A DNA stretch of 38,848 bases from Planctomycetota bacterium (GTDB lineage Bacteria > Planctomycetota > SZUA-567 > H5-PLA8): NCBI GenBank assembly GCA_038227875.1, contig JBBRPR010000076.1, forward strand, positions 1-38,848. The letters run 5' to 3'. Shown piece after piece: positions 8,313 to 27,333 of this stretch. The notes beneath the pieces are model-generated. The model saw only the letters and a list, made by a program, of their open reading frames with translations. It searched no databases and was not told the origin of the DNA. Both the position numbers and the translations under genes were made by a program. Position 1 is the first letter of the stretch, and each line of letters starts with the position of its first letter.

Positions 8313-8322
8313 CCCGCGCGCT

Positions 8323-9447
8323 ATGACGACAAAAAACTTGGAACGGCGGCGTTTCTTAAATTATTTGAGGGGAGCGGCAACGGCAGCTACCATCTTTCCC
8401 AGGATTCCCACTGCATCCTGCGGCACGCCATCTAGTGCCAACAAGAATTTGCCTTGGCCAAAATTGAAAGGCAGCCCGGTCCTGGACAGCCTGCACTATG
8501 CGGTCGAGTCTTCACGCGACGTGCAATCTCACTACGACAAGATTGTGGAAGCCGCGTCCTGGATGGCCTACGAAGAGTTGCCCATGCCGGAGTTCGCGCT
8601 GCCATTTGGAGTCGGTGCGGGCGACCGGAACGAAGCGATCGATTTCATCATGGTGGCGGACTCGATCGACACCGCGTTCACAAACTTTGCGAATCACGTA
8701 AAGTTTCAGGTGGATTTTGCAGGCGAGCACTGGTCCGATTCAGACGCGATGTTTGCATGCCTCAAACAGGCGCTGGATAACGGGATTGCGGTGCTGGACG
8801 GGAAGTTCCTGTCCGCGCTGACGCGAAAGCAGTTGGATGAGATTTTCAAAGGAAACATCGCGATGCCGATGCTCGATGAAAAGCTCAAAGTGCTGCAAGA
8901 CGTCGGCAAAGTCTTGGTGGCGAAGTATGACGGGCATTTCCACAATTTCATCAATTCGTGCCCGCCGAAGGCCTATGACAACGGCAAGGGAATCGTGGAC
9001 CGAATGGTGGCCGAGTTTCCGCGCTTCAACGATGTTAGCGATCTGGATGGACACGAGATAAAGTTCTACAAGTTGACGCAGTTGGGCGTATGGATGATGT
9101 ACGCGACGATGCACAAGCAGGGAAAGTTCAAGTTGGAAGACGCGGACAAGATGACCGCGTTTGCAGACTATATCGTGCCGGTGGCGCTGCGGGTAACGGG
9201 AATTATCAGCTATTCGAAAGAACTGGAGCACGCCATCGATACCTACCAGATCGTTCCACGCGATTCGCGTTGGGAGATTGAGATCCGCGCACACACCATT
9301 TACGCGACAGCGATGCTGACGGAAGAAGTCAACAAACTGCGTCCGGCGGATATGCAGATCATCATTCCGCAGATTGACGCGCGTTTTTGGACCCATTACC
9401 ACGCTACGCACTGGCCACACCATCTGACAAAAACAATCATGTACTAG
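8323..9447 (+). CDS. qng1: Queuosine salvage family protein (Qng1/DUF2419-like N-glycosylase/hydrolase), divergent
   Basis: FPRFND, FYKLTQL, TAFADYIVP, LRVTGIISYSKEL, EIEIRA, IDARFW and terminal PHHLTKTIMY align with the DUF2419/Q_salvage pattern. Confidence 0.85.
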   Translation: MTTKNLERRRFLNYLRGAATAATIFPRIPTASCGTPSSANKNLPWPKLKGSPVLDSLHYAVESSRDVQSHYDKIVEAASWMAYEELPMPEFALPFGVGAGDRNEAIDFIMVADSIDTAFTNFANHVKFQVDFAGEHWSDSDAMFACLKQALDNGIAVLDGKFLSALTRKQLDEIFKGNIAMPMLDEKLKVLQDVGKVLVAKYDGHFHNFINSCPPKAYDNGKGIVDRMVAEFPRFNDVSDLDGHEIKFYKLTQLGVWMMYATMHKQGKFKLEDADKMTAFADYIVPVALRVTGIISYSKELEHAIDTYQIVPRDSRWEIEIRAHTIYATAMLTEEVNKLRPADMQIIIPQIDARFWTHYHATHWPHHLTKTIMY

Positions 9448-9485
9448 GCAGTTTTGCGGTTACTGCAAGAAACGGGGGAAATCCG

Positions 9486-10583
9486 ATGCGTAAATTCGTG
9501 AAATTTTGGACCGTGCTGCTGCTGGCAATAGCGTGTGTGGGCAGCGCGCGAGGACAGGGGAAGCGGATGGTGATCATTGATCAAGACGCTTCCGGACCGG
9601 GTGGCACGGATTTGCAGTCGGTCCTGGTGCTGATCAATTCTCCCGACACTCAGGTGCTTGGCGTCACCGTGGTGATTGGCGACATGTGGCTAGATGAGGA
9701 AGTGGCGCACACGCTGCGCATGCTGGAGATCATCGGACGAACCGACATTCCGGTCGTGCCCGGAGCGGCGTTCCCGCTGTGGAACACCAAGGAGTACATC
9801 CAAACGTGGGAGAAAACCTACGGGAAGGTGTTGTACCAAGGTGCCTGGAATTATGCCCCGCACGGCAAAGTGCATGGACCGCACGAGATTCCGGAAATGC
9901 CGGAAGGGAAGCCGACCACCAAAGCCTCTACGGAAGATGCCGCCCATTTCCTGGTGCGCTTGGTGCATGAACATCCGCACGAGATTACGATTTATGCCGG
10001 CGGGCCGCTGACGAATTTAGCGCTGGCGATGGGAGTGGATCCAGAATTTCCGTCGTTGACCAAAGAACTGATCATCATGGGCGCAAGTATCGATCCGAAA
10101 ACCGATGATCCAGAGTTTTCGTTGACGCCGACCCGCGAGTTCAATTTCTGGATCGATCCGGAAGCCTCGAGCATGGTACTGCACGGGAAGTGGCCGCGGG
10201 TGGTGATCACCACGGTAGACATTTCGGTGAAGACGAACATGAGTAAGGAGTTGATTGAGCGGGTGAAAAAGAGTTCAGCGCCCGGGGCCCAGTACATCGG
10301 CAAGTATGCGGAGGAAGGGTACTTGTGGGATGAGTTGGCGGCGGTGGCTTGGCTTGACCCGAGCATCATCACAAAATCTCGGAAGCTGTACATGGATGTC
10401 GATACCAGTCACACGGCCGGATACGGAAATACCCTGGTGTGGCCGCAAGGTTCACAGCCGGGCATGGGTGAAGTTCAGGCAGAGATTCAAGACGATCTGG
10501 ATTTGGCAAAGTTCTACAAGGAGTATGTGGATTTGCTAATGCGGCCGACTTCGAGTGCGAAGAACGCGGCCGGCGTGAAGTAA
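9486..10583 (+). CDS. Nucleoside hydrolase NH1 (IU-NH family, DQD...TD variant), Sec signal peptide
   Basis: IIDQDASGPGGTD, GGPLTNLALA, REFNFWIDPEA, LWDEL; start ATG 9486 after GGGGG; signal MRKFVKFWTVLLLAIACVGSARG-Q. Confidence 0.92.
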   Translation: MRKFVKFWTVLLLAIACVGSARGQGKRMVIIDQDASGPGGTDLQSVLVLINSPDTQVLGVTVVIGDMWLDEEVAHTLRMLEIIGRTDIPVVPGAAFPLWNTKEYIQTWEKTYGKVLYQGAWNYAPHGKVHGPHEIPEMPEGKPTTKASTEDAAHFLVRLVHEHPHEITIYAGGPLTNLALAMGVDPEFPSLTKELIIMGASIDPKTDDPEFSLTPTREFNFWIDPEASSMVLHGKWPRVVITTVDISVKTNMSKELIERVKKSSAPGAQYIGKYAEEGYLWDELAAVAWLDPSIITKSRKLYMDVDTSHTAGYGNTLVWPQGSQPGMGEVQAEIQDDLDLAKFYKEYVDLLMRPTSSAKNAAGVK

Positions 10584-10589
10584 AGGTGC

Positions 10590-11594
10590 CTAAGCGCGAA
10601 AGGGCGCGGAAGATTCCCGGACACGGAGTTCGTTTTTCAGGACTTCATGCTTCGGCAGTTTGTGTTTGCCGGAAATCCGGCTGAGAAGAATTTCCGTGCT
10701 GCGGCGCCCGAGCTGATACTTTGGTTGTTCCACGCACGTCAGCTTGGGATGAAAAACATCATTCCAGAAAAAGTCGTCGTAACTGACCACGGAGATATCT
10801 TCCGGGCAGCGTAGCTTCCGTTCTTCGAGGGCGCGCAGGAAGCCGATGGTCATCATGCAGTTGGTCACGAAGACTGCTGAGGGTTTTTGGTCGAGAAGGC
10901 GCATGCCCTCGTCGTAGCCCGATTGAATGCCGTAGTCTCCATTCACAACCAGCGAGTCGGAAAGTTCGACTGCAGCTTCCTTGAGCGCCTCGGTATAGCC
11001 GCGCGTCCGGCCGTTGGTGGTACTGGTGCCAACGATTCCGGCAATCAGCCCTATGCGGCGGTGGCCGAGGCCCAGCAAATGTTCCGTGGCGGCAAACGCA
11101 CCGCCGTAGTCGTCTGCCACGACAGTGTCGGCGCGCAGAATCGAGTATTCGCGGTCCATCAGGACGACCGGGGTCCTGGCTTTTTTCAGGTTTTCCAGTA
11201 GCACCGGATTGAGTTCGCCGGCGCCTTTGACCAGAAGGATCCCGTCTACCCGTTTGGAGAGGAAGAGATTGAGGTAGAGATCTTCCTTGGCGACCTGATT
11301 GTCGGAGTTGCCCAAAATGACCGTGTAGCCGGCTTCGTTAGCCTCATCTTCAGCGCCTCGCACGATCTGCGGGAAGAACGGGTTGGAGACGTCTGGAATG
11401 ACGATGCCGATCGTATGGGTTTTGCGCCGCGCCAGACTACGCGCGAGAAGGTTGGGCGAATAGTTAAGCGCGGAAATCGAGTGTTCCACTTGCTTTCGGA
11501 GTTGGGGGCTGACGTACGAGGTCTTATTGATCACGGCGGAGACCGTAGCGACGGACACTTTGGCGCGCTTGGCAACGTCGTAGATGTTCGGCAA
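10590..11594 (-). CDS. LacI-family transcriptional regulator (RbsR/PurR-like)
   Basis: NIYDVAKRAKVSVATVSAVIN helix-turn-helix, YSPNLLARSL hinge helix, and a sugar-binding domain ending LRVRESS; TTG start with GGAG upstream. Confidence 0.96.
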   Translation of the reverse strand: MPNIYDVAKRAKVSVATVSAVINKTSYVSPQLRKQVEHSISALNYSPNLLARSLARRKTHTIGIVIPDVSNPFFPQIVRGAEDEANEAGYTVILGNSDNQVAKEDLYLNLFLSKRVDGILLVKGAGELNPVLLENLKKARTPVVLMDREYSILRADTVVADDYGGAFAATEHLLGLGHRRIGLIAGIVGTSTTNGRTRGYTEALKEAAVELSDSLVVNGDYGIQSGYDEGMRLLDQKPSAVFVTNCMMTIGFLRALEERKLRCPEDISVVSYDDFFWNDVFHPKLTCVEQPKYQLGRRSTEILLSRISGKHKLPKHEVLKNELRVRESSAPFRA

Positions 11595-11724
11595 GGGAGA
11601 GTTCTCCGGGCTTGGTGCTTATTATCATACAAAGGCGCTCGACGGGAACTGGGATAAATGTGTGAAATCCGTTCAAAAAGTGGATTTCCCCGGGAAGGCT
11701 GAGCGGGGACAAAAGAATTCATTC

Positions 11725-11786
11725 TTGACAACGGAGCATTGACTGATAGACTCGCGGCCAGCTAAGCGCCTAGCTAAGCACTTAGT
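11725..11786 (+). promoter_or_regulatory. Sigma70 promoter with two tandem LacI-type operators (copy 1)
   Basis: TTGACA 11725-30, 16 bp, TAGACT 11747-52; then AGCTAAGCGCCTAGCT (11760-75) and CTAAGCACTTAG (11774-85). The cassette recurs at 20958. Confidence 0.88.
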
Positions 11787-11927
11787 TCGTGTGTTTTGAT
11801 CGATCCGGTGCCAAGAATAGAGATCGGTGGGCGTCCCGAGGGTTTCTGAGATTCGATCGAGCTCGAAATACACGGTGGCGAATCGCGTGCTTTTGTTTAG
11901 CGCTGTTGAATTCGGCTGGGAGGCAGG

Positions 11928-13016
11928 ATGCGATTCGCGACGCTGCGAACGATTGTAACGATTCTCGCATTATGGGCAGGGGCCGGCGGCGCCGCGCAGG
12001 CGCAAAAAGCCAAAATCATCATTGACCAAGACGCGCGCGGGCCGGCATCCACCGACATCAATGCGATTTTGATGTTTGCGCAGTCCCCGCAGGTGGACGT
12101 GCTGGGCGTTACGATTGTGGCTGGCGACCAATGGGTGAAGGAAGAAACGGCGCATACATTGCGGGCGCTAGAGATCGCCGGGCGCTCGGACATCCCCGTA
12201 TTGATGGGCGCGCAGACCCCGTTAGTAAACACACGCGAGGAGTCTGAATTCTGGGAAGCTCAATACGGGCAGTTTGCGTTCAAGGGCGCCTGGACGGACA
12301 AGCTGTACCACTCGCCGGATTTGATCCCGACGATGCCCGAAGGCGAGCCGAAGACCAAGGCGTCGGACGAGAACGCAGTGGCCTTCATCATTCGCATGGT
12401 GCACAAGTACCCAGGCGAAGTGGTGTTGTGGGCCGGCGGACCGCTGACAAATATCGCGCTGGCGATTCGAATGGATCCCGAAGTTGTGAAGCTGTCGAAA
12501 GAATTGGTGGTGATGGGCAGCGGATTCAATGTCGGCGTGGGCGGCATACATCGCGTGAACGGGCGGCGCGAGTTCAACTGGTGGTTCGATCCCGAAGCGG
12601 TGCGGATTGTGATGAGCGCCCCGTGGAAGAAGATCGTAATAACGCCAGTGGACATTTCGGTGAAGACGCAGTTGACCGAGCAATTGACCGCGCGTGTGGC
12701 GGCGGTAGACACGCCTCTGACGGAATATCTAAAAAAGTACTCCCGGCCGAGCTACATGTGGGATGAGATTTCGGTGGCGGCGTTTTTGGATCCGAGCATT
12801 ATCACCAAGCAGGAAGAGCTGTACGTCAATATTGACGTTGATCACGGGCCCAGCTACGGGCAGACCATTTTCGTCGGCAAGGACACGAAAGTACCGTCGT
12901 GGTGGAAACTGGCGGCGGTACAGTTCGACTTGAACACCGAAAAGTTTTATGACTTATACGTGAAGCTGGTGACCGCGCCCCAGGGAAGTGGTAAGGCCGA
13001 TGCCAGGGCGAATTGA
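11928..13016 (+). CDS. Nucleoside hydrolase NH2 (IU-NH family, DQD...TD variant), Sec signal peptide
   Basis: IIDQDARGPASTD, GGPLTNIALA, RREFNWWFDPEA, MWDEI; SD GGAGG; signal ending AQA-Q. Confidence 0.93.
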   Translation: MRFATLRTIVTILALWAGAGGAAQAQKAKIIIDQDARGPASTDINAILMFAQSPQVDVLGVTIVAGDQWVKEETAHTLRALEIAGRSDIPVLMGAQTPLVNTREESEFWEAQYGQFAFKGAWTDKLYHSPDLIPTMPEGEPKTKASDENAVAFIIRMVHKYPGEVVLWAGGPLTNIALAIRMDPEVVKLSKELVVMGSGFNVGVGGIHRVNGRREFNWWFDPEAVRIVMSAPWKKIVITPVDISVKTQLTEQLTARVAAVDTPLTEYLKKYSRPSYMWDEISVAAFLDPSIITKQEELYVNIDVDHGPSYGQTIFVGKDTKVPSWWKLAAVQFDLNTEKFYDLYVKLVTAPQGSGKADARAN

Positions 13017-13040
13017 TTCGCGAGATTGATTGGACAAACA

Positions 13041-14111
13041 ATGAGTTCGAATTTCGGACAAGCCGAGGGCGGTCGGCCGACCTCAGAACGGTACGGTGGC
13101 GTTACCCCCATTTCATCAGGAGCGTTAGCTGCGACCGGTAGGGTCGCTGCACCCAGTGGTGAACTGCGGCCGAATCAGGGGATACCGCTGCACACGGAGT
13201 GGGTGGAGTCGGTTCGCGTTAACACCAGCGCAGTCGAACGCCGTGCGGCGACTCTTGCAACGCGGCGGGCGGTGAAAAAAGATTGGCAGATCGCGTGGTT
13301 ATTGCGCGCGATTTCGTGCATGGATTTGACCACGCTTGCGGGCGACGACACCGACGAGCGCGTGAAGCGTTTGTGCGCGAAGGCCAAGCAGCCGCTGCAA
13401 AGCGAGTTGGTGGAGAAGTTGGGAATCGCAGGGCTAGAGCTGAAGGTCGCGGCGGTCTGCGTGTATCACACTTTTGTGGAGATCGCGCGCAAGGCGCTGG
13501 AAGGTAGCGGCGTGAAGGTGGCAGCAGTGTCCACGGGATTTCCGGCGGGACTTTCTCCGTTCGAGCAGCGTGTCGAAGAGATTCGGCGATCGGTAGACGC
13601 CGGCGCGAACGAAATTGATGTGGTGATTACGCGGGCGCATGTGTTTGGTGCGAAATGGGAACAGTTGTACAACGAAGTGGCGGTGTTCAAGAACGCTTGC
13701 GGCGCGGCGCACTTGAAAGTCATCTTGGGCACCGGCGACCTGACCACGCTGCGGAACACGGCGAAGGCGAGCTTAGTGGCCATGATGGCGGGCGCAGATT
13801 TTATCAAGACGAGCACCGGAAAAGAGACCGTGAACGCCACTCTGCCGGTGGGACTCGTAATGATACGAATGATTCGCGGGTACGAGCAGAGAACGGGATT
13901 TACGGTGGGATTCAAGCCGGCGGGCGGAATTCGAACGGCCAAGCAATCGCTGGAATGGCTGATGCTGCTGAAAGAAGAGTTGGGGCCGCGGTGGCTGAAT
14001 GCGGACATGTTCCGGTTTGGCGCGAGCGGAATGCTGGCGGACATCGAGCGGCAATTGCAGTTTCATGTAACAGGACGGTATTCAGCGGAGTACCGGCACC
14101 CGATTGCGTAG
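13041..14111 (+). CDS. deoC: Deoxyribose-phosphate aldolase
   Basis: MDLTTLAGDDT, VAAVSTGFP, GANEIDVVI, GADFIKTSTGK (Schiff-base Lys), GFKPAGGIR and FRFGASG. Start 13041 or 13026. Confidence 0.96.
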   Translation: MSSNFGQAEGGRPTSERYGGVTPISSGALAATGRVAAPSGELRPNQGIPLHTEWVESVRVNTSAVERRAATLATRRAVKKDWQIAWLLRAISCMDLTTLAGDDTDERVKRLCAKAKQPLQSELVEKLGIAGLELKVAAVCVYHTFVEIARKALEGSGVKVAAVSTGFPAGLSPFEQRVEEIRRSVDAGANEIDVVITRAHVFGAKWEQLYNEVAVFKNACGAAHLKVILGTGDLTTLRNTAKASLVAMMAGADFIKTSTGKETVNATLPVGLVMIRMIRGYEQRTGFTVGFKPAGGIRTAKQSLEWLMLLKEELGPRWLNADMFRFGASGMLADIERQLQFHVTGRYSAEYRHPIA

Positions 14112-14139
14112 CTAGTTTGGGGTTGCACGAGCGAGGCAG

Positions 14140-16518
14140 ATGAGCGTTGTCGAAAAATTCGTGACCATGGAGTACGGCGCGGCGCCGGAAGACCCGCGCG
14201 AGACGCTGGCGTGGCTCGATGCGCATGGCCGTGCGTTTGGGCATTTCATCGGCGGGAAGTGGCGCGCGAGTTCGAATGCCGCGACGTTCGAAACGGTAGA
14301 CCCCGCAACGGGAAAAACGCTGGGGATGGTCGCGCAGGGTTCGGGGGAGGACGTGAATACGGCAGTCAAGGCGGCGCGCGTGGCGCTTCCGAAATGGCAA
14401 GCGTTGACGCCAAATGCCCGCAGCCGTTATTTGTACGCGATCGCGCGACACATTCAGAAGCATTCGCGGCGGCTGGCGGTTCTGGAAACGATGGACAACG
14501 GCAAGCCGATCCGCGAGAGCCGCGATTTGGACATTCCCCTCGTGGCGCGGCATTTCTATTACCACGCGGGCTGGGCGCAGGTGCTGGATGAAGAATTCCC
14601 GGGCTATGCGGCGTGTGGCGTGGTTGGACAGATCATCCCGTGGAACTTTCCCTTGCTGATGCTGGCCTGGAAAATCGCACCGGCGCTGGCGGCGGGAAAT
14701 ACAGTGGTACTGAAGCCGGCGGAATATACGCCCCTTACGGCGCTGGCGTTCGCGGAGATTTGCGGCGAGATTGGGTTGCCAGCGGGCGTCGTAAACATTG
14801 TGACGGGGGACGGCGCGACAGGCGAAGCGCTGGTAAAGAATCCCATGGTGGACAAGATTGCGTTCACCGGATCGACGGAAGTTGGGCGCGTAATTCGCAA
14901 GGCCACGGCAGCGAGTCACAAGAAAATATCACTCGAATTGGGCGGGAAGTCCCCTTTTTTAGTATTTGATGACGCGGACCTCGACAGCGCCGTGGAAGGC
15001 CTCGTGGACGGTATCTGGTTGAATCAGGGCCAGGTGTGTTGCGCAGGTTCGCGGCTGCTGATGCAGGAAGGGATTGCCGATGCGCTTATTACAAAGATTC
15101 GCGAACGGATGAGCAATTTGCGGGTGGGCGCGCCGCTCGACAAGGGAATCGACGTTGGAGCGATTGTGGCAGGAGTGCAACTGGAGCGCATCAAGCGCCT
15201 GGTGGCGCGGGGAGTGGAAGAAGGCGCGGAACTGTGGCAGCCGAAGTGCGAGATTCCGGAGAAGGGATTGTTTTTTCCTCCCACACTACTGACCAACGTA
15301 CATCCGTCTTCCACGGTGGCGCAGCAGGAGATTTTTGGGCCGGTGCTCGCCGCGATGACCTTCCGCACGCATCGCGAAGCGATTGAATTGGCCAACAACA
15401 CAACGTATGGACTTGCCGCGAGCGTGTGGAGCGAGAGTATCAACGTGGCCCTGGAAGTCGCCGCCCAGATCAAAGCCGGTGTGGTGTGGGTGAATAGCAC
15501 GAATCTTTTCGACGCGGCGTGCGGATTCGGTGGCTATCGCGAGAGCGGATTCGGTCGAGAGGGTGGCCGCGAAGGAATGCTGGAGTATCTGGAACCGGTC
15601 TGGTTCCAGAAGGCAAAGGCCTTGGAGGCGAAGAAGGGACGCAGCGATAGCAAAGCGGAGATGAATGTCGCGGGCGATGGAATCGACCGCACCGTGAAGC
15701 TGTACATCGCGGGAAAGCAGGCGCGGCCGGATTCCGGTTATAGCTTTGCGGTGCAGGGGAGCGACGGCAAGCTGCTGGGTGAAGCGCCGCTGGGAAATCG
15801 GAAGGATATTCGCAACGCGGTGGAAGCAGCCCGGAAAGCGTCGAGCTGGGGTAAGGCGACGGCACACAATCGAGCACAGGTGCTTTACTACATGGCCGAA
15901 AACCTGGCACAGCGCGAGAACGAGATCGCCGCGCGACTCGAGCGAGTGGTTGGCAAGCGCGAAGCGAAGCGAGAAGTGACTGCGAGCATCGATCGAATGT
16001 TCTCGTATGCGGGGTGGGCGGATAAGTTCGACGGCGCGGTGCATAACCCCCCGATGCGCAGCATCTCGATTGCGATGAATGAATCGATCGGAACGGTCGG
16101 GGTGATTTGCCCAGAAGAATTTCCGTTGCTGGGGCTCGTTTCCACCGTGTTCCCGGTAATCGCCATGGGAAACACGGCGGTGGCCATACCCTCGGAACGG
16201 TATCCATTGATCATGGGAGATTTGTATCAGCTGTTCGAAACCAGCGACTTGCCAGGCGGAACGGTGAATTTTGTAAGCGGGCGCGCGGAAGAGTTGGCCA
16301 AGACACTGGCCGAACACGATGACATCGATGCGGTGTGGTGCTTTGGGAATGCCAGCGATGCAGAGAACGTGAAGAACTGGTCGGCTGGAAATCTGAAGCA
16401 AGTATTTACCAACGAAGGGCGCCAGATTGACTGGTACAACGCCAAGCAGGGTGAGGGGCGTTGGTTCCTGGAACACGCAACGCAGGTAAAGAATATTTGG
16501 GTGCCATACGGAGAATAG
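14140..16518 (+). CDS. Aldehyde dehydrogenase, ALDH16-type (full ALDH plus second NAD-binding-like domain)
   Basis: IIPWNFP, FTGSTEVG, LELGGKS (Glu), QGQVCCAG (Cys), EIFGPV and FGGYRESG, followed by about 290 aa repeating the N-terminal domain without a catalytic domain. Confidence 0.95.
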   Translation: MSVVEKFVTMEYGAAPEDPRETLAWLDAHGRAFGHFIGGKWRASSNAATFETVDPATGKTLGMVAQGSGEDVNTAVKAARVALPKWQALTPNARSRYLYAIARHIQKHSRRLAVLETMDNGKPIRESRDLDIPLVARHFYYHAGWAQVLDEEFPGYAACGVVGQIIPWNFPLLMLAWKIAPALAAGNTVVLKPAEYTPLTALAFAEICGEIGLPAGVVNIVTGDGATGEALVKNPMVDKIAFTGSTEVGRVIRKATAASHKKISLELGGKSPFLVFDDADLDSAVEGLVDGIWLNQGQVCCAGSRLLMQEGIADALITKIRERMSNLRVGAPLDKGIDVGAIVAGVQLERIKRLVARGVEEGAELWQPKCEIPEKGLFFPPTLLTNVHPSSTVAQQEIFGPVLAAMTFRTHREAIELANNTTYGLAASVWSESINVALEVAAQIKAGVVWVNSTNLFDAACGFGGYRESGFGREGGREGMLEYLEPVWFQKAKALEAKKGRSDSKAEMNVAGDGIDRTVKLYIAGKQARPDSGYSFAVQGSDGKLLGEAPLGNRKDIRNAVEAARKASSWGKATAHNRAQVLYYMAENLAQRENEIAARLERVVGKREAKREVTASIDRMFSYAGWADKFDGAVHNPPMRSISIAMNESIGTVGVICPEEFPLLGLVSTVFPVIAMGNTAVAIPSERYPLIMGDLYQLFETSDLPGGTVNFVSGRAEELAKTLAEHDDIDAVWCFGNASDAENVKNWSAGNLKQVFTNEGRQIDWYNAKQGEGRWFLEHATQVKNIWVPYGE

Positions 16519-16550
16519 CAGGTCGTGTGGGCCGTGATGAATCGACGAAA

Positions 16551-16606: not shown

Positions 16607-16614
16607 AGATGGGC

Positions 16615-17658: not shown

Positions 17659-17737
17659 AGATCGCGTGGTCGAACAGAAGTGGCCCAGGTAAGCAAAGCA
17701 GGTCTGAAGTGCATGGTACCGGGGGAGGCAGACCGAG

Positions 17738-18709: not shown

Positions 18710-18795
18710 GCGGAGTAACGCTTCCGGCAATTTGTTCAAAGTTTCGGTCGATGCTGCAGAAGTGCTGAGAAGTACGGTGTGAAGGGAGAAGTGCC

Positions 18796-19758
18796 CTGGC
18801 TAATATCGTCGTAGTGGGAAGTTTGAATATGGATTTGGTGGCCATCTCGCCCCGGATTCCGGTCGTCGGCGAAACAATTATCGGCGACAAATATTTCACC
18901 GAGCCCGGCGGCAAAGGCGCCAATCAAGCCTACGCGGCTGGGTTGCTTGGCGGCTCGGTCAGTATGCTCGGCCGAGTGGGCGAGGATGAATTCGGTCGCG
19001 AGATGAAAGAAAACCTCAAGAAGGCGAAATGTGACACTACCGGAATTCGCGAAGTGAAGGGCGTAAGCGGTGTGGCCCTGATCTTCGTGGCGGCTGACGG
19101 TGCGAACTCCATCATCGTGGTTCCGGGGGTAAACAATGATTTCACGCCAGAGCATATTGAGGAGGACGCAGCGTTCCTCAAGGGTTCGCAGATCGTTTTG
19201 CTGCAGCTCGAAAACCCCACGCCCACCGTTCTGGCGGCGGCGAAAGCGGCACGGGCCGCAGGAGCACGGGTGATTCTGGATCCCGCGCCGGCACCGGAAA
19301 AACCACTGCCAGCGGAGTTGATCCGCGCGGTGGACATCATGACGCCGAACGAGACGGAAGCCGCCATTCTGGCGGGTTTGCCACCGGGAACACTGGAGCC
19401 GTCCCAAGCAGTGCAGATCGGCCGCAAGCTGCAAGGGATGGGGGCCACGACGGTGATTGTGAAACTGGGCAGCCAGGGCTGCGTACTGGTGAATAAGGAT
19501 AAAGGTCAAGCGACCTTGCTGGCAGCGCCAAAGGTAACGGCGGCGGACACCACCGCCGCGGGCGATGTGTTCGGCGCGGCCCTCGGCGTGGCATTGAGTG
19601 AAGGCCTGGACCTTCCAGCGGCGTGCCGATTTGCAAACTATGCCGCGTCGCTTTCGGTGACCCGCATCGGCGCACAGATCTCCGTACCGACGCGCAAAGA
19701 AGTAGAAGACTTTGCCAAGAGCAGCAGTGTTGGGAATCCGGTCGATCTGGCGGGATAA
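18796..19758 (+). CDS. rbsK: Ribokinase (PfkB family), probable CTG start
   Basis: (L)ANIVVVGSLNMDLV, PGGKGANQA, LLQLE, TPNETEA and DTTAAGDVF; GGGAG SD at 18784-88, 7 nt before CTG 18796. Confidence 0.95.
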   Translation: MANIVVVGSLNMDLVAISPRIPVVGETIIGDKYFTEPGGKGANQAYAAGLLGGSVSMLGRVGEDEFGREMKENLKKAKCDTTGIREVKGVSGVALIFVAADGANSIIVVPGVNNDFTPEHIEEDAAFLKGSQIVLLQLENPTPTVLAAAKAARAAGARVILDPAPAPEKPLPAELIRAVDIMTPNETEAAILAGLPPGTLEPSQAVQIGRKLQGMGATTVIVKLGSQGCVLVNKDKGQATLLAAPKVTAADTTAAGDVFGAALGVALSEGLDLPAACRFANYAASLSVTRIGAQISVPTRKEVEDFAKSSSVGNPVDLAG

Positions 19759-19796
19759 GTCAGCGGTAGGGTTCAGGTTCGCGAAATGGGGAAACG

Positions 19797-20864
19797 ATGA
19801 ACAGATGGAAGATCACTGGTAGGTTTGCGGCGCTTATCACGTTAGCACTGGCTGTCGTTACGTCGAATACCTCAGCGGCCGGGAAGAAAGTAATCATCGA
19901 TACCGATCCTGGCACCGACGACGCCTTGGCAATCATGCTGGCGCTGAACTCGCCGGAGTTGGATGTTCGGGCCTTCACCGTGGTACCCGGCAACGTCACC
20001 GCGAGGCAAGGACTCGACAACGCATTGAAGATGATCTCGTTGGCCAACCGCTGCGACATTCCGGTTGCCGCCGGAGCCCAGCATCCAATTTTCCAGAAAT
20101 CGGTTACCGCCGAGTATTGGCACGGCAAGAATGGGCTGGCAAACATCGAGCTGCCGGCCAGCAAGTGCAAGGTGGATCCGCGGTTCGGGCCGGATCTGAT
20201 CATCGAGATGGTGAAGGCCAATCCGCACGAGATCACTCTGCTGCCGATCGGGCCCCTGACCAACATCGCGCTGGCGGTATTGAAGGATCCGTCAATCGTC
20301 CCGCTGGTAAAAGAAGTGATTATCATGGGTGGTTCGATTTCGGGAGGCAACTCCACGGGCGCCGCGGAAGCGAACATTTTTGGCGATCCAGAAGCGGCGC
20401 AAATCGTGTTTCAGGCTGGTTGGCCGCTGACGATGGCTGGTCTTGAGGTGGGAGACAAGACGCTATTTTCAAAGGCGTATCTCGAACGGCTTGGGCAGAC
20501 GCACGGGCCGGTGAACGACTTTATCTACAAAGTGGCGAAGTTCCTGGTGGATCAGAGCGCGCAGTTCGGGGTGGACGGAAGTCCGATGTACGACCCGACG
20601 GCGATTGGCACAGCGATAGATGCCACCATCATGACGACGGTGTCGATGCACGTGGACGTGGAGACCCGCGGAGAGTTCACCCGGGGAGAGACGGTGGCGA
20701 ACCGGCACAACATGAATGAGCGGAATGTGCTGCACCACGACGCAGACGGAGACCGTTACGTGATCGAGGGGTTGGACAAGCTCAATCCGAACGTAAGGGT
20801 GTGCACGGACATCGATTCTAAGAAGTTTCTGGAGCTATTTCTTACGCGGATTGCCGGGAAGTAG
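19797..20864 (+). CDS. Nucleoside hydrolase NH4 (canonical DxDxxxDD type), Sec signal peptide
   Basis: IIDTDPGTDD, VPGN, WHGKNGL, IGPLTNIALA, GNSTGAAEANIFGDPEAA and MYDP. Confidence 0.95.
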   Translation: MNRWKITGRFAALITLALAVVTSNTSAAGKKVIIDTDPGTDDALAIMLALNSPELDVRAFTVVPGNVTARQGLDNALKMISLANRCDIPVAAGAQHPIFQKSVTAEYWHGKNGLANIELPASKCKVDPRFGPDLIIEMVKANPHEITLLPIGPLTNIALAVLKDPSIVPLVKEVIIMGGSISGGNSTGAAEANIFGDPEAAQIVFQAGWPLTMAGLEVGDKTLFSKAYLERLGQTHGPVNDFIYKVAKFLVDQSAQFGVDGSPMYDPTAIGTAIDATIMTTVSMHVDVETRGEFTRGETVANRHNMNERNVLHHDADGDRYVIEGLDKLNPNVRVCTDIDSKKFLELFLTRIAGK

Positions 20865-20957
20865 CGCGATAGGGAGCGGAGATCAAAAGCAAAAAGGAAA
20901 TGACTGATATTGATTTCGCGGTTCCGGGGGCCCGCAGATGCCGAGAAGCGTTTGTAC

Positions 20958-21016
20958 TTGACAACGGAAATACGGCTGCTAGACTCGGCCAGCAAAGCGG
21001 TTTGCTAAGCACTTAG
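20958..21016 (+). promoter_or_regulatory. Sigma70 promoter with two tandem LacI-type operators (copy 2)
   Basis: TTGACA 20958-63, 16 bp, TAGACT 20980-85; AGCAAAGCGGTTTGCT (20991-21006) and CTAAGCACTTAG (21005-16). Confidence 0.88.
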
Positions 21017-21099
21017 ATTGGGCTTTTTGATGGGTTTTACAGTCTCTCCGAAATCATCCAGAGAGGCCACGACACGCCAGGGGAGCACGGGCCATTTAC

Positions 21100-22203
21100 T
21101 TGTTGGGACGACATCCGATTCGCACGCTGGGACGCATCGTTATCACCTTCGCTACGTTGGCGGTTGCTACGGCGGGGGTAAATGCACAGCGTGAAAAAAT
21201 CATCGTGGACCAGGACGCGCGCGGCCCCGCCTCCACGGACATGAATGCAATTTTAATGCTTGCGCAATCCCCAAAGGTGGATGTCCTAGGTATTACGTTG
21301 GTCGCCGGCGACCAGTGGGTGAAGGAAGAAGCCGCGCACACGTTGCGAGCTCTGGAACTGGCCAAACGAACTGACATCCCGGTGATGCTCGGCGCATCAA
21401 CGCCGCTTATCAATACTCGCGAAGAGTCGGAAGCGTGGGAAAAACAGTACGGCGAGTTTGGGTTCAAAGGCGCATGGACGCCAAAGTGGTATCACGCGCA
21501 GGATGTCGTCCCCGATTTAAAGGAAGGGGCACCGACGAGCAAAATCTCCGCCGAAAACGCAGTCGAATTTATTATCAAGACGGTGCACAAATATCCGGGT
21601 GAGGTGACACTGTGGGCCGGTGGACCGCTTACGAATATCGCCCTCGCAATTCGAATGGACCCGGAAGTAGTTTCGCTCTCTAAACAGCTTGTGCTGATGG
21701 GCAGCGGCTTCAATGTTGGATCCGGTGGGATTCACGAAGTCAACGGCCGGCGGGAGTTCAATTGGTGGTTTGACCCGGAGGCGGTTCGCATCGTGATGAG
21801 CGCGCCGTGGAAGAACATCACTATTACGCCGGTGGACATCTCGGTGAAGACGAAACTTTCGAAGGAATTGCAGGCCAGGATCGGCGCCGTGCACACGCCG
21901 CTGACCGATTATTTGGAGAAATATTCCGATACCGGCTATCCGATGTGGGACGAGATTTCTGCCGCGGCATTCCTCGATCCCAGCTTTATCACCAAGGAAG
22001 AGAAGCTTTACGTGAATATTGATATCGATCACGGGCCCAGTTACGGGCAGACGATTTTTGTGGGTATGGACACCAAGGTACCCGGGTGGTGGAAGCTGGC
22101 GACGGTGCAATTCGATTTGGATTCGCAGAAGTTCTATGACATGTATGTTCAATTGATGACCGCGCCACCGGGCAGTGGAAAAGTAAAAGACGGAACCAAC
22201 TGA
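21100..22203 (+). CDS. Nucleoside hydrolase NH5 (close paralogue of NH2), Sec signal peptide
   Basis: IVDQDARGPASTD, RREFNWWFDPEA and MWDEI; long stretches identical to NH2. Exact start uncertain. Confidence 0.93.
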   Translation: MLGRHPIRTLGRIVITFATLAVATAGVNAQREKIIVDQDARGPASTDMNAILMLAQSPKVDVLGITLVAGDQWVKEEAAHTLRALELAKRTDIPVMLGASTPLINTREESEAWEKQYGEFGFKGAWTPKWYHAQDVVPDLKEGAPTSKISAENAVEFIIKTVHKYPGEVTLWAGGPLTNIALAIRMDPEVVSLSKQLVLMGSGFNVGSGGIHEVNGRREFNWWFDPEAVRIVMSAPWKNITITPVDISVKTKLSKELQARIGAVHTPLTDYLEKYSDTGYPMWDEISAAAFLDPSFITKEEKLYVNIDIDHGPSYGQTIFVGMDTKVPGWWKLATVQFDLDSQKFYDMYVQLMTAPPGSGKVKDGTN

Positions 22204-22318
22204 CCCATTCTGTATGATAAAAAAACAAGCAAGCCAGTTCCTTCCGAATTCAGTCATCAAGTTGAGGTCAGATCAAGTGTGCACGGCCGTCTTATCCGAC
22301 GGCGGGGTGAGGGGTAAA

Positions 22319-25300
22319 ATGAAAAAGCAGGCGATCGCAGTAGGAGTGGTGTTGTTGCTGATGTTGTGCATGTCGCCCAGGACCTACGGGCAGGCGACGG
22401 GTAGCCTCTCGGGTACTGTGACCGATAAGAGTGGCGGAGCCCTAGTGGGCGCCCTCGTGCGTGCAACGTCTCAGGCCACCGGCGCGGTGCGCGAAGCCAC
22501 CGCGGACGATTCGGGACACTTTACGATTCCTTTGTTGCCGGTCAGTGTGTACACGTTACACGTCGAATTGACGGGTTTCCAGACGGCGGAAACCCACGAT
22601 CTCAAGTTGCAAGTGGACGAGTCGCGAGAGATCAATTTCTCACTGGCGCCCGCCACCGTGTCCACCTCGGTCGAAGTATCATCGTCGGCAGTGACGATCG
22701 AGACGTCCAGTCCTTCCCTCGGCCAAGTCATCACTTCTCAGCAAGTGGCACAGCTGCCGTTGAATGGGCGCGACTTCGTGCAGTTGGCGACGCTCACGCC
22801 CGGCACCACTCAAGAGACCAGCACCGGCAGTTTCTTTAACGGCGGTCCCAGCTCGGAAGTTTCCGCTCGTGGTTCGTTTTCGCTATCGGTTGGCGGGTCG
22901 CGCGTCAACAGCACCGACTGGCTGCTGGACGGTACGGATAACAATGAGTTGACCGCGGGTGGCATTGGTATTTTGTCCTCGATCGATTCGATTCAGGAAT
23001 TCAAGGTGTTGACCTACAACTACTCGGCCGAGTACGGCACGCGCGCCGGACCGACCGTCTTGGTGACCACCAAGTCTGGTACGAATTCACTGCACGGCAC
23101 TTTGTTTGAATTCCTTCGCAATACGTCGCTGGACGCGAAGAGTTTTTTTGCGACAGAAACGGAAAAGTTCAACCTGAATCAGTTCGGCGGTTCGATTGGC
23201 GGACCGATTCGTAAGAACAAATTATTTTTCTTCGTCGATGGCGAGCAGAAGTCCCAGCGGCGCGGCACTCCATTCACCGGAGTGGTTCCCACCGACGCAA
23301 TGCGCGCGGGCGATTTTACACTGGATGCCTTCGGCCGGCCGGCTAGCCCCCTTACCAATCCGAACGTAACCGGTGCTGCGGATACCCGATTTCAATGCGA
23401 TGGTACAGGGAACGCTCTACCCGTAGCGTCTAACGGAAGCCAAGCGGCTGGAACACCCTGTAACAAAATCCCGGCTGGTCTATTCAATCCGATCGCACAA
23501 CAGCTTTTGGCGTTTTATCCCGAACCAAACGCGAACAACCCCGACTCGTTTTATAATTACGTGAGTGCCCCGGTTCGTAAGCTGGACGAGACCAAGTTCG
23601 ACGTCCGGTTGGATTACAACCTGAGCGACAAAGACCGCATGTTCGCGCGCGTCAGCTACGACCAGGCTGTTTCCTACGTTCCTGGTGGCGCAGATGGCTT
23701 TGCCGAGCAGAACGCCTTCGCCAGCAACCAAGGTCTTGAAAATCACGCCCGCAACGCCACGATCGGCGAAACTCATATCTTCACGCCGACCACGGTCAAT
23801 GACTTCAACTTTGGCTACAACCGAATTTTTAACTACATTACCTCGCAAGGTACCGGGAGCTGCGAATCGGCTGCGCTCGGTATACCCGGCGCGAACCTCA
23901 ACTGCACGGGTGGGGCGGGCAGTTGCATTCCCGGCGGCGTGAGCTGCGGCCTCGTATCGACTCAGCTAAACGGTGGCTACTTCTCCATCGGTGACCGCGG
24001 CTTCTCGCCGTTCACCGGTGGCACGGACATCTTCTCGTTTAACAACGCGCTAACGCTAATTCGCGGCAAACACGATTTGAAAATTGGTTTCGGGCTGCGC
24101 GCGAATCAGATGAACGTGCTGACAGAAGGATTTCAGGATGGCTATTGGATCATGAGCGGTGCCTGGACCGGAGATCCGGCTGCGGATCTCCTGCTAGGCT
24201 TGACTAGCCTGGCCATTCACGACCAGTCCTTCGGCGGCACGACGACCGGGCGGCGTTGGAAGAACTTCCGGCCATACGCACAAGACGACTGGCGTATCAC
24301 CAAGAACCTGACCCTGAACCTCGGTTTGGCGTGGGCTCTGGTAACGCCGATTTCTGAAGTCAACAACCGTCAGGCCAACCTGGATCCCGTCACACAACAA
24401 GTGGCCGTTTCGGGAGTGAATGCCGGCAAGTGGACCGGTATCGACTTTGACAAGACGGCGTTCGAGCCACGAATTGGTTTGGCTTGGAAAGCATTCGGCA
24501 GCGAAAAAACTGCGGTGCGCGCCGGATATGCGATCTTCCACGACTCCGCGTGGAACCAAGGCGCCCAAGGCTTGTGGCAGAACCCCCCGTATTACGCCGA
24601 GTCGGATCAATTTGCTTTCGGCGGTGGTTGCACCTTTGCGACCGCAGCGTGCGCGACCGTCTATGGTCAAACGCCGGGGGCGATCAGCATCTCTGACGGG
24701 TTTCCGCTGTTCCCGACGCCGCCGGATCCATCTACCTTTACCGGGACGTTCCTGTCTCAGAATACCGACTTCCATCTCGGCGAAACCCAGCAATTCAACG
24801 TCAACGTCGAGCACCAGTTGCCGGGTGGCGTCTTGCTGACCGTTGGCTATATCGGCGCACGTACTAAGCACATCCTCGTCTACGGAAATAACCGCAACGT
24901 CGGCAGTCCTTCCGCTTGCGGTGTCGTTTCCGGCTACGAGCTGGGTTGCGGACCGGGTGGCAGTGCATTCGCTCCACCCTTCACGGCCTACCCCTTCAGC
25001 ACCGTGGCGGCGATTGCCGATACGGGCAAGGCGCACTACAACGGCCTGGAAGTGAAAGCAGAGACCAAAAGCTCCCGCTACGGTATCTATGCGTTGATTG
25101 GATATACGTATTCGCGAGCGTACGACAACGGCTTTTCCGACGGTGTGGGTACATCGACAGGGGCGGCTTATTTCCCGTTGCCCGGATGGGACAAAGCCGA
25201 CTGGGCCCTCTCGCAAATCAACTTGAACAACAACTTTACCGCCAGCTTGATCTATGATCTGCCGCTTGGCCGCGGGAAGCACTTCGGCAACAATTGGAAT

Positions 25301-25798
25301 GGAGCGAAGAACGCGATCCTGGGCAACTGGCAGGTGACCGTGATCCAGAAGATCACCTCGGGTTTTCCGATCTTTGTCTACGATTCCAACAACACCTCCG
25401 GAGCTGCCCTAAACATCGGCGGCAGCAGCTTTATCCGTCCGGATCTCGTCGGCAATCCCGCCAAGGGCGGTGGTGGAGCGGACTGCGGTGCCGGGACGCT
25501 GCAGCATTGGTTCAACCCGTGCGCCTTCGCGCAGCCAGCGGACGGCCAACTCGGCAATGCCTCCCGTACACCGGTCAACGGCCCGGATTTCGTCAACACT
25601 GATTTTTCGGTGATCAAAAACTTCGCGCTTCCTTGGGAAGGAAAGGGGCTGGAATTCCGCGGGGAAATCTTCAACTTGTTTAACCACGCGCAATTCGCAC
25701 TTCCCGCCTCCGACTTTAACGCTGGTAACTTCGGCGCGATTTCCTCGACGGTGAACAACCCCCGATTGGTCCAGTTTGGGCTGAAGTTCAACTTCTAA
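22319..25798 (+). CDS. TonB-dependent receptor (Oar-like, carboxypeptidase-regulatory N-domain)
   Basis: Signal peptide then GSLSGTVTDKSGG, LPLNGRDFVQLATLTPG, DSIQEFKV, YAQDDWRITKNLTLNLGL, and C-terminal PRLVQFGLKFNF; ATG 22319 after GAGGGG. Confidence 0.95.
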   Translation: MKKQAIAVGVVLLLMLCMSPRTYGQATGSLSGTVTDKSGGALVGALVRATSQATGAVREATADDSGHFTIPLLPVSVYTLHVELTGFQTAETHDLKLQVDESREINFSLAPATVSTSVEVSSSAVTIETSSPSLGQVITSQQVAQLPLNGRDFVQLATLTPGTTQETSTGSFFNGGPSSEVSARGSFSLSVGGSRVNSTDWLLDGTDNNELTAGGIGILSSIDSIQEFKVLTYNYSAEYGTRAGPTVLVTTKSGTNSLHGTLFEFLRNTSLDAKSFFATETEKFNLNQFGGSIGGPIRKNKLFFFVDGEQKSQRRGTPFTGVVPTDAMRAGDFTLDAFGRPASPLTNPNVTGAADTRFQCDGTGNALPVASNGSQAAGTPCNKIPAGLFNPIAQQLLAFYPEPNANNPDSFYNYVSAPVRKLDETKFDVRLDYNLSDKDRMFARVSYDQAVSYVPGGADGFAEQNAFASNQGLENHARNATIGETHIFTPTTVNDFNFGYNRIFNYITSQGTGSCESAALGIPGANLNCTGGAGSCIPGGVSCGLVSTQLNGGYFSIGDRGFSPFTGGTDIFSFNNALTLIRGKHDLKIGFGLRANQMNVLTEGFQDGYWIMSGAWTGDPAADLLLGLTSLAIHDQSFGGTTTGRRWKNFRPYAQDDWRITKNLTLNLGLAWALVTPISEVNNRQANLDPVTQQVAVSGVNAGKWTGIDFDKTAFEPRIGLAWKAFGSEKTAVRAGYAIFHDSAWNQGAQGLWQNPPYYAESDQFAFGGGCTFATAACATVYGQTPGAISISDGFPLFPTPPDPSTFTGTFLSQNTDFHLGETQQFNVNVEHQLPGGVLLTVGYIGARTKHILVYGNNRNVGSPSACGVVSGYELGCGPGGSAFAPPFTAYPFSTVAAIADTGKAHYNGLEVKAETKSSRYGIYALIGYTYSRAYDNGFSDGVGTSTGAAYFPLPGWDKADWALSQINLNNNFTASLIYDLPLGRGKHFGNNWNGAKNAILGNWQVTVIQKITSGFPIFVYDSNNTSGAALNIGGSSFIRPDLVGNPAKGGGGADCGAGTLQHWFNPCAFAQPADGQLGNASRTPVNGPDFVNTDFSVIKNFALPWEGKGLEFRGEIFNLFNHAQFALPASDFNAGNFGAISSTVNNPRLVQFGLKFNF

Positions 25799-25817
25799 GC
25801 AGCAAAGGTTCTGGTGG

Positions 25818-25858
25818 GCGGGGCCGACTCGTCGAGTACCGACGGGCCCGCTTTTTTT
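25818..25858 (+). terminator. Rho-independent terminator after the TonB receptor
   Basis: GC-rich imperfect hairpin (gcgggg...cgtcg-agtac-cgacg...cccgc) followed by T7. Confidence 0.8.
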
Positions 25859-27275: not shown

Positions 27276-27333
27276 GTCGATGGTTTTAGTGTAAAGCGGC
27301 TCGCGTATCCAGAACTCGCCCCGGAATCGTAGA

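Follow-up and report, generated by a model that had tools for sequence, protein, structure and literature searches.

The stretch analyzed here, contig JBBRPR010000076.1 of a genome bin filed as a Planctomycetota bacterium (38,848 nt; contig C76 of the bin; "the window" below means this whole stretch, not the locus alone), carries a block of genes for five predicted exported nucleoside hydrolases (NHs), a Qng1-family N-glycosidase homolog, an outer-membrane barrel protein, an inner-membrane permease, enzymes of pentose breakdown and a LacI-family repressor. Pfam and NCBIfam searches of the 15 long open reading frames (ORFs) between 5.8 and 31.4 kb, together with matches to PDB sequences, bear out the gene list of an earlier sequence-only reading, which had proposed a nucleoside-scavenging locus at 8323..25858. 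These limits were too narrow, as collinearity with a contig of another acidobacterial genome, G417, places the unit at 5853–31169. Family searches also confirmed that the whole window is devoid of nucleoside phosphorylase, phosphopentomutase and base-catabolic genes. The features of the block are as follows.

5855..8131, minus strand: predicted exported two-domain FGE protein, 758 amino acids (aa) (PF03781, E 8.1e-33, residues 548–753)
8323..9447, plus strand: Qng1-family N-glycosidase homolog of a divergent subfamily (PF10343, E 1.8e-57; PDB 7U07/7UK3, E 2e-35)
9486..10583 (alternative start 9387), plus strand: NH1, predicted exported IU-family hydrolase (PF01156; DQDASGPGGTD, LWD)
10590..11594, minus strand: LacI-family repressor (LacI helix-turn-helix and Peripla_BP domains)
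11725..11785, plus strand: predicted promoter P1 (TTGACA-16-TAGACT, 11725–11752) and tandem palindromic operator O1 (11760–11785)
11928..13016, plus strand: NH2, predicted exported IU-family hydrolase (PF01156; DQDARGPASTD, RREFN, MWD)
13041..14111, plus strand: long-form deoxyribose-phosphate aldolase DeoC (TIGR00126; the ORF opens at 13026, probable ATG at 13041)
14140..16518, plus strand: ALDH16-type aldehyde dehydrogenase, 792 aa (full-length match to PDB 6MVR)
16624..17658 (alternative start 16525), plus strand: NH3, predicted exported IU-family hydrolase (PF01156; DTDFAVPPQDD, MYD)
17738..18709, plus strand: DMT-superfamily inner-membrane permease of the ureide-permease/GRP type (PF07168, PF06800)
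18796..19758 (listed ORF from GTG 18814), plus strand: ribokinase (TIGR02152)
19797..20864, plus strand: NH4, predicted exported IU-family hydrolase (PF01156; canonical DTDPGTDD, MYD)
20958..21016, plus strand: predicted promoter P2 (20958–20985) and operator O2 (20991–21016)
21100..22203, plus strand: NH5, predicted exported paralog of NH2, 75% identical (PF01156)
22214..25798 (likely start 22319), plus strand: outer-membrane protein with CarboxypepD_reg and OMP_b-brl_4 domains, 1194 aa
25828..25846, plus strand: terminator-like hairpin with a T-run, 3' of the outer-membrane gene
25905..27374, minus strand: TPR1, predicted exported CarboxypepD_reg and TPR protein (Pfam; signal-like start)
27334..31350, minus strand: TPR2, FG-GAP/UnbV_ASPIC/TPR protein with a twin-arginine (Tat) signal, about 1300 aa, the last gene of the shared block

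The TPR1 and TPR2 genes are convergent to the barrel gene.

Nucleoside hydrolases and their partner proteins

The five NHs score 189–304 bits against PF01156 (E 2e-55 to 2e-90; cut-off 34.2 bits) and differ in their signatures. In the family motif DXDXXXDD, the second and fourth Asp bind Ca2+ and the third Asp binds ribose (10.1101/574913). NH4 has exactly this motif (DTDPGTDD), with AAEAN at the ExN position and MYD at the last metal Asp, and NH3 keeps all four Asp residues with a 3-residue insertion (DTDFAVPPQDD), followed by NAEFN and MYD. NH1, NH2 and NH5 share DQDA[SR]GPxxTD and [LM]WD, with RREFN in NH2 and NH5 and TREFN in NH1. The Ca2+-assigned Asp residues, GPLTN, ExN and the last Asp are aligned and kept in all five proteins, and the alignment of the NH2 clade shows no variation at the metal and catalytic sites. 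Identity between paralogs of different clades is 30–46%. In a quick maximum-likelihood tree of 84 sequences, NH1 (26 rows, SH-aLRT 96), NH2/NH5 (33 rows, SH-aLRT 92), NH3 (7 rows, SH-aLRT 99) and NH4 (4 rows, SH-aLRT 99) form clades apart from a sixth, Tat-type NH clade, and every NH clade has members from several genomes. The split between NH2 and NH5 is common to the window and the corresponding locus of G417 (L008). The four NH clades of the window thus appear to be old and separately conserved, and a specificity-diversified panel, as proposed in the sequence-only reading, is a fair reading of these sequences.

That all five NHs carry signal peptides, another point of that reading, is supported both by a sequence heuristic and by conserved leaders in homologs of every NH clade. 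Each N-terminus has one to three positive charges, an uncharged run of 14–17 residues and then an AxA-like site, located 3–6 residues ahead of the first catalytic motif; ALDH16, ribokinase and DeoC show no leader features by the same heuristic. Among the best 120 homologs of NH2, 112 have the motif DQDxxGPxx[TS]D, and 111 of those 112 have a hydrophobic N-terminal extension; the remaining eight homologs are N-terminally truncated gene calls. Sec-type leaders are also found on homologs of the NH1, NH3 and NH4 clades in related loci. Members of the sixth clade, which occurs in Terriglobales and is not represented in the window, have RRxFV twin-arginine leaders and are fully canonical, with DTDPGVDD and MHD in 50 out of 51 ORFs. 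None of the five NHs has a lipobox. Leaders are likewise present on the FGE protein, whose orthologs keep a signal-like N-terminus, on TPR1, on TPR2 (Tat motif) and on the barrel protein, for which the start at 22319 would yield a Sec signal. Collectively, the NHs appear to cross the inner membrane, as read from these signal-bearing sequences.

Residues of the Qng1 homolog were mapped by pairwise HMMER alignment to PDB 7U07 and then by a MAFFT alignment of 121 sequences (the window protein and its 120 best homologs), with roles taken from S. thermophilus Qng1 (PMC9881137). The nucleophile D231, K199, Y232, F75, the guanine-reading D298, the stacking W302 and the C-terminal Tyr are invariant. 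By contrast, the queuine side-chain pocket is changed (W48F/Y, H53G, Y93S, W94D/E and W299A, S. thermophilus numbering), as are the phosphate contacts (K233I, Q306 without counterpart; R80 is kept as Lys) and the relay residues (D207M, N72D), and these changes are invariant or nearly so across the 121 sequences. The earlier assignment of a Qng1-like enzyme is thus upheld for the family and the catalytic core and not for the residues of the queuine and phosphate pockets; with these pockets lost, the suggestion that modified nucleosides are processed via Qng1 is not supported. The protein belongs to a distinct, constrained subfamily that is likely still a guanine-type N-glycosidase, whereas specificity for queuosine-5'-monophosphate seems improbable. 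Its N-terminus has a twin-arginine signal (ERRRFL). The twin-arginine motif is present in 46 of the 120 best homologs, whereas 66 are short forms in which Met starts just past the leader position, some of them (in loci L046 and L053) leaderless at the DNA level.

The DMT permease matches PF07168 (69.5 bits) and PF06800 (31 bits), both above cut-off, and its database homologs are labeled "glucose uptake protein" or "GRP family sugar transporter". A PF07168 (UPS) permease of Acidobacteriota, encoded beside qng1, enabled uptake of preQ0 and preQ1 in E. coli, but not of queuosine, and of queuine only at very high concentration, a result that its authors called unexpected (PMC11130926). We likened the window permease to this tested protein (A0A2V9U0M9) by their shared Pfam family, PF07168, and by this analogy the window permease may import bases rather than pentose.

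The cytoplasmic enzymes of the pentose branch are assigned by strong matches. Ribokinase scores 312.7 bits against TIGR02152 (cut-off 299.65), and DeoC scores 165.7 bits against TIGR00126 (cut-off 117.3) and matches E. coli-type DERA structures (E 7e-46). The aldehyde dehydrogenase aligns over residues 1–791, extra C-terminal domain included, with PDB 6MVR (E 3.7e-284), which is the Loktanella ALDH16 (PMC12041015), and has the catalytic Cys and Glu (NQGQVCCAG, LELGGKSP). We also looked for ALDH16-like genes in the bin's own phylum, a lineage other than that of the locus, using 10 of the 11 best loci (L122–L131; G298, with a 450-aa frame at a contig start, was omitted). A long-form DeoC gene lies near ALDH16 in nine of the ten, directly upstream on the same strand in six and within about 3 kb upstream in three; the tenth locus begins inside ALDH16 at a contig edge. 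Neither an NH nor a ribokinase gene was found near the pair in these ten loci. DeoC–ALDH16 would therefore be a two-gene module in its own right, which in Acidobacteria became linked with the NH system. Its conservation suggests a physiological role for bacterial ALDH16, which we infer to be oxidation of the acetaldehyde made by DeoC; any activity of the system on deoxynucleosides is purely inferred from this pair.

The ribokinase start at GTG 18814 would drop the first β-strand (conserved IVVVG), and a CTG at 18796, located behind a Shine–Dalgarno-like GGGAGA, would restore M-A-N-I-V-V-V-G, which resembles the N-termini of orthologs. The start thus seems to be CTG 18796.

The barrel protein matches PF25183 (OMP_b-brl_4, 700.7 bits) and PF13620 (CarboxypepD_reg, 68.6 bits). 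This family and domain order are those of acidobacterial TonB-dependent receptors, and on these two features the protein is a presumed TonB-dependent transporter, in line with the earlier label of a TonB receptor. Searches for a Plug family match found none. Weak matches are to the SusC N-terminus (E 1e-5) and to PqqU (residues 92–134, E 0.0027). A profile of 23 barrel orthologs recovered from PDB the regulatory domain alone and no plug. By eye, some motifs in the barrel consensus may be plug-like.

The N-terminal ~500 aa of the FGE protein are outside any known Pfam family, and its C-terminal domain is FGE-sulfatase-like. A representative search with the N-terminal domain gave 2398 matches, and the fusion to an FGE-like domain is found in 58 of 63 full-length relatives. 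Its profile matched PDB sequences only in faint alpha-amylase and GH18 segments, and the Atlas gave weak leads to DUF6259 (0.80) and GH123_N (0.79). RYGG.D, PYNPWD and NGDTM are conserved motifs of the FGE family.

Regulation and conservation of the block

The sequence-only reading had noted a LacI regulator with shared operators, and identical promoter–operator modules do precede NH2 and NH5. The sequence AGCWAAGCGNNTWGCTAAGCACTTAG occurs exactly twice, at 11760–11785 and 20991–21016 (0 expected in 100 shuffles). Within 7.9–26.1 kb, TTGACA-16-TAGACT is the sequence of both top-ranking sigma-70-like sites (11725–11752 and 20958–20985), and the composite palindrome AGCWAAGCGNNTWGCTAAGCACTTAG lies 6–8 nt downstream of each. 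The palindromic form with a central CG at the target promoters and a LacI protein with helix-turn-helix and sugar-binding domains are consistent with predicted LacI operators O1 and O2 at both promoters and with a system that would be LacI-repressed. The modules are kept in L008, where all four sites (4/4 across the window and L008) agree, although the NH2 leader outside the module is unalignable between the two. In locus L011, whose LacI is 68% identical, a similar palindrome (AGCTAA-N4-TTAGCT) lies upstream of two barrel genes. The regulator comes closest to the NCBIfam models PurR, RbsR and CytR, without reaching the cut-off of any of them. Intergenic gaps within the putative operons are 24–105 nt, and these short gaps suggest two transcription units, NH2-DeoC-ALDH16-NH3-DMT-RbsK-NH4 and NH5-barrel. 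No operator was found upstream of Qng1-NH1. The window has no Rfam match at gathering score, and none at E≤1 in 8000–22300; the long leaders would thus hold no known riboswitch.

The window is collinear over 5853–31169 with a 765-kb contig of G417, which holds L008, at a DNA identity of 77–83%. Within the L008 stretch and its 10-kb flanks, the 13 genes from FGE to the barrel are in the same order and display 86–97% amino-acid identity. The shared block ends at the stop codon of the FGE gene on the left and just inside the start of TPR2 on the right, and the flanks beyond 5853–31169 are unrelated between the two genomes. Because the block is collinear up to 31169 and bounded by unrelated flanks, the functional unit is taken to include the FGE protein, TPR1 and TPR2.

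A pattern scan for the NH2 clade in species-representative genomes matched at least 621 stretches and was borne out in at least 599 of them. Analysis continued with the best 78 loci, 77 of them filed under Acidobacteriota lineages; their six-frame ORFs were annotated using the window proteins as queries, and ORFs unlike any window protein were clustered and then family-scanned. Neighbors were counted in those 50 loci (L008 excluded) whose 10-kb flanks are complete, and these counts are lower bounds because frames are broken in many metagenome-assembled genomes (MAGs) and some partners lie beyond the flanks. That the gene association is conserved in relatives is evident for the core of the system. 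An orthologous barrel protein is located near the NH cluster in 42 out of 50 loci, ribokinase in 32, TPR1 and TPR2 in 25 each, the DMT permease in 17 and the FGE protein in five. At least two NHs are present in 48 loci, at least three in 38 and at least five in 19. There are at least three distinct gene orders, the window's being one; a common order in Terriglobales is RbsK-barrel-NH2-NH1-<TPR1-NH2-NH4'-NH1-<TPR2, and L012 and L014 have barrel-DMT-NH2-NH5-NH3-RbsK.

Further neighbors among the 78 loci include an NCS2 permease of the xanthine/uracil type inside the NH cluster in ten loci, usually between NH1 and TPR1. Pyrimidine-nucleoside/thymidine phosphorylase (10/78) and cytidine deaminase (7/78) were found above their cut-offs, and there are also amidohydrolases (8/78) and isochorismatase-family proteins (12/78). 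In L053, L056 and L046 a leaderless Qng1 homolog directly precedes cytidine deaminase and/or phosphorylase. Such base permease, deaminase and phosphorylase neighbors are the best independent support for nucleosides or bases as the currency of the system.

The Qng1–deaminase/phosphorylase rows (L053, 18962–21019; L056, 16337–19227; L046, 18697–21019) come after TPR2 and a further TPR gene. A recurrent trio adjoins the NH clusters in 14–15 of the 78 loci, for example in L024 (17590–21067) and L062 (12225–15783). It consists of a second PfkB kinase, which shares about 37% identity with RbsK, a RhaT-like sugar/proton symporter and a DUF455 protein. The 117-kb contig with L009, doubtfully filed under Candidatus Saccharimonadales, has homologs of NH2 and NH3 that are 80% and 75% identical to those of the window.

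A predicted nucleoside route and its alternatives

Taken together, these data suggest a LacI-repressed, three-compartment nucleoside-utilization system of a Terriglobia-type acidobacterium, a reading to which we give a probability of roughly 0.58. In the outer membrane, the CarboxypepD_reg/OMP_b-brl_4 barrel would admit nucleosides or small breakdown products of nucleic acids to the periplasm. There, five Sec-exported NHs from four clades would cleave the N-glycosidic bond, as their family membership and retained metal and catalytic residues suggest, and the Tat-exported Qng1-family glycosidase, possibly retooled for a guanine-like base other than queuine, would act alongside them. The DMT permease would import pentose or base through the inner membrane. 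In the cytoplasm, ribokinase would phosphorylate ribose and presumably deoxyribose, DeoC would split deoxyribose-5-phosphate, and ALDH16 would then oxidize the acetaldehyde. Two operator-bearing promoters would drive the unit from NH2 to NH4 and the NH5-barrel unit; Qng1-NH1, the FGE protein, TPR1 and TPR2 would be outside these operator-controlled units, yet inside the conserved 25-kb block.

Several observations weigh against this system. In NH1, NH2 and NH5 the third, ribose-ligand Asp is replaced by Thr behind a 3-residue insertion, a pattern invariant within the NH1/NH2/NH5-type clade. Furthermore, the His before the last metal Asp, which is the general acid of IU/CU-type enzymes, is missing in all five NHs (NH3 and NH4 have Tyr there, the other three Trp); Trp at this position marks purine-specific IAG-type enzymes, whereas His marks the IU/CU type. 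Because of the changed third Asp and the missing His, ordinary ribonucleosides may not be the substrates of these NHs. The only characterized periplasmic relative, RusNH, is a weak enzyme (10.1101/574913), and the sole tested PF07168 member carried 7-deazaguanine bases, ribose not being among its reported substrates (PMC11130926). The barrel protein has no Pfam match to a Plug domain, and in an AlphaFold model of its N-terminal 395 residues the mean pLDDT is 57.6, with the presumed plug (residues 114–256) below 50. The signal peptides were called by direct reading and a crude heuristic for n-, h- and c-regions, not by a trained predictor. Finally, ALDH16 (5/50), DeoC (4/50), LacI (4/50) and Qng1 (3/50) are each located near the NH cluster in only three to five loci, some being excluded by the 10-kb flanks, and since related genomes are kin, locus counts do not represent independent events.

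The alternatives differ mainly in what is cleaved, and where. The block could be a Rus-like system that serves ribose conjugates other than nucleosides. Its NH-fold proteins and the glycosidase-like FGE-domain protein would then free ribose from more complex ribosides (cofactors, ADP-ribose-type compounds or ribofuranosyl glycans), and only the sugar would matter. The weak activity of B. thetaiotaomicron RusNH on nucleosides and the still unknown substrates of Rus (10.1101/574913) would fit this, as would the altered ribose motif of NH1, NH2 and NH5, the conserved exported FGE-domain protein with its faint glycosidase-like hints, and ribokinase as the commonest cytoplasmic partner (32 of the 50 loci). 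We nevertheless regard it as unlikely, given the NCS2 permease within relatives' NH clusters, the deaminase and phosphorylase beside them, the base-releasing Qng1-family enzyme in the block and the canonical NH motifs in NH4 and in relatives' Tat-type clade. The emphasis would instead be on the base if the main role were micronutrient salvage of 7-deazaguanine bases (preQ0, preQ1, queuine), with Qng1- and QueK-like hydrolases freeing the base and a UPS-type permease importing it. A UPS protein encoded beside qng1 did give preQ0/preQ1 uptake, UPS genes cluster with queK-like genes of the NH family (PMC11130926), and the window permease matches PF07168 above cut-off. Against this, the grouping of five NHs, ribokinase, DeoC and ALDH16 under a single repressor points to carbon flux, no operator precedes Qng1-NH1, the queuine pocket is lost in the Qng1 subfamily, and the link of the permease to the tested protein is at the level of the Pfam family; such salvage as the main role therefore seems improbable.

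Location and linkage are the remaining issues. The signal peptides reveal only that the inner membrane is crossed, and the block encodes several large exported accessory proteins, so that the NHs might act extracellularly or on the surface after Sec/Tat export, with the barrel importing products and not nucleosides. Family searches found no secretion-system gene in the block, RusNH appears to be periplasmic, with none detected on the cell surface (10.1101/574913), and free ribose or bases would hardly require a large energized barrel; an extracellular site is thus improbable as well. That unrelated genes were juxtaposed by chance or by assembly is scarcely credible. The contig does stand out from its bin in composition and has genes of insertion sequence (IS) type at its end, but a 765-kb contig of a different genome, which carries these 13 genes in unchanged order, contradicts such a juxtaposition. 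The promoter–operator modules are shared as well, and dozens of species show the same associations.

The nearest described system is Rus of Bacteroidetes, e.g. B. thetaiotaomicron BT2802–2809 (10.1101/574913). Its ribose-utilization locus, with one NH, is indeed the partial precedent with a single hydrolase for which the sequence-only reading had taken it. Rus resembles the window block in its outer-membrane barrel, a signal-bearing and apparently periplasmic NH, ribokinase(s), an inner-membrane permease and a dedicated regulator, which is LacI in some variants, and its enzyme set varies by species (10.1101/574913). As in Rus and polysaccharide-utilization loci, the ribokinase, permease and exported hydrolase genes adjoin the transporter gene. 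The differences are as follows. None of the 15 block proteins has a SusD-family match, and the SusC model matches weakly; the acidobacterial system, known here from sequence alone, thus has no SusD and a barrel of a non-SusC family. Its clusters have 3–6 NH paralogs compared to one NH in the B. thetaiotaomicron Rus, and the window locus adds the DeoC/ALDH16 deoxyribose branch, the Qng1-family enzyme and three NHs with a changed ribose motif.

Other known relatives share single components. E. coli RihA, RihB and RihC and the trypanosomatid IU-NH (PDB 1Q8F, 3B9X, 1MAS, 5TSQ) have the PF01156 fold, the metal Asp residues, GPLTN and ExN in common with the window NHs, but in the alignments their solved chains start directly with the catalytic motif and lack the leader that all five window NHs have, and they display His before the last metal Asp instead of Tyr (NH3, NH4) or Trp (NH1, NH2, NH5). 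With Qng1/QNG1 (PMC9881137), the window homolog shares PF10343 and the catalytic core and differs in the pockets, the relay residues and the Tat signal. The qng1–UPS cluster of Acidobacteriota (PMC11130926) likewise combines a Qng1-family gene with a PF07168 permease gene in one neighborhood, whereas the window permease gene is 8 kb from qng1, inside a putatively LacI-controlled operon. The accessible text of that paper contains neither "periplasm" nor "ribokinase", and no mention of export signals, an outer-membrane protein, multiple NHs or a pentose branch was found there. For ALDH16 of Loktanella sp., the only activity given in two reviews is on medium-chain aldehydes in vitro, with no physiological pathway (PMC8160307, PMC12041015), whereas here ALDH16 is paired with DeoC. 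The literature found on exported or periplasmic NHs comprises the Rus preprint, plant apoplastic NHs and the queuosine-transporter paper, most subscription journals being outside the search. Part of the architecture, of which the sequence-only reading knew no description, is in print, both in the Rus systems and in the clustering of qng1–UPS and NH–UPS genes in Acidobacteriota.

Tentatively, the separate observations could be joined into a wider proposal, namely, that a widespread extracytoplasmic nucleoside-dismantling system in soil Acidobacteria has re-tooled three enzyme families. In this proposal, the DQDARGPxxTD/RREFN/Trp clade, which lacks the ribose-binding Asp, may act on deoxy-, modified or 5'-substituted nucleosides. 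The partly Tat-exported Qng1 subfamily would free a 7-deazaguanine base such as preQ0 or preQ1 and not queuine, which, if true, would explain why the neighboring UPS-type permease took up preQ0 and preQ1 in the published assay (PMC11130926). ALDH16 would be the acetaldehyde dehydrogenase of the DeoC branch, in a pairing conserved across phyla.

In soil, nucleic acids make up a large pool of organic C, N and P, and Terriglobia rank among its most abundant bacteria. If the regulated extracytoplasmic route exists, the abundance of Terriglobia and the presence of the NH2 clade in at least 599 stretches would make it a general trait of Terriglobia nutrition. The locus offers four to five diverged exported NHs that could serve as a natural panel for work on specificity, an uncharacterized NH clade with a changed sugar-binding motif and a gene-context assignment for bacterial ALDH16. 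Furthermore, the pocket of the Qng1 subfamily predicts a substrate other than queuosine, which bears on the unexpected published result for the UPS permease (PMC11130926).

Host of the contig and minor features

Contig C76 is probably misbinned, and a Terriglobia-like acidobacterium is taken here as its host. Searches for the NH2 clade found it in none of 16 genomes of the bin's family (E≤1e-20) and in none of 400 genomes of its phylum (E≤1e-80), and it is present in 23 out of 41 genomes comprising G417 and its relatives (E≤1e-60), or in 21 out of 39 without G417 and G450, a positive flagged as unpublished. For the block and for a flank gene, the closest relatives are Acidobacteriota/Terriglobia MAGs. 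Among the 97 contigs of at least 20 kb, C76 has the most deviant tetranucleotide use, and its G+C content is 55.2% against a mean of 59.7%. The flank gene at 2–1627 has 70%-identical copies in the Terriglobia MAG G418, and none were found in three genomes of the bin's family. Another low-G+C outlier contig, C54, had its match in a genome of the bin's family rather than in G417, which speaks against simple contamination. The relatives of the bin were rejected as a test of conservation, because C76 is probably foreign to it. The bin has a sixth NH, on contig C21 (305 aa, no leader), which is a weak negative control since C76 is probably misbinned.

Within the window, the G+C content is 54–60% in the block and 50–53% in the flanks. 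Neither tRNA genes nor border repeats, the marks of an island, were found. On each side of the block there is at least 1 kb without an ORF of 100 aa or more (4640–5855 and 31350–32335). Genes for an IS110-family transposase and rve integrases are located at the right contig end (34428–35099, 35028–35774 and 37222–38040), and a 710-bp stretch recurs at 91% identity on the bin's contig C118.

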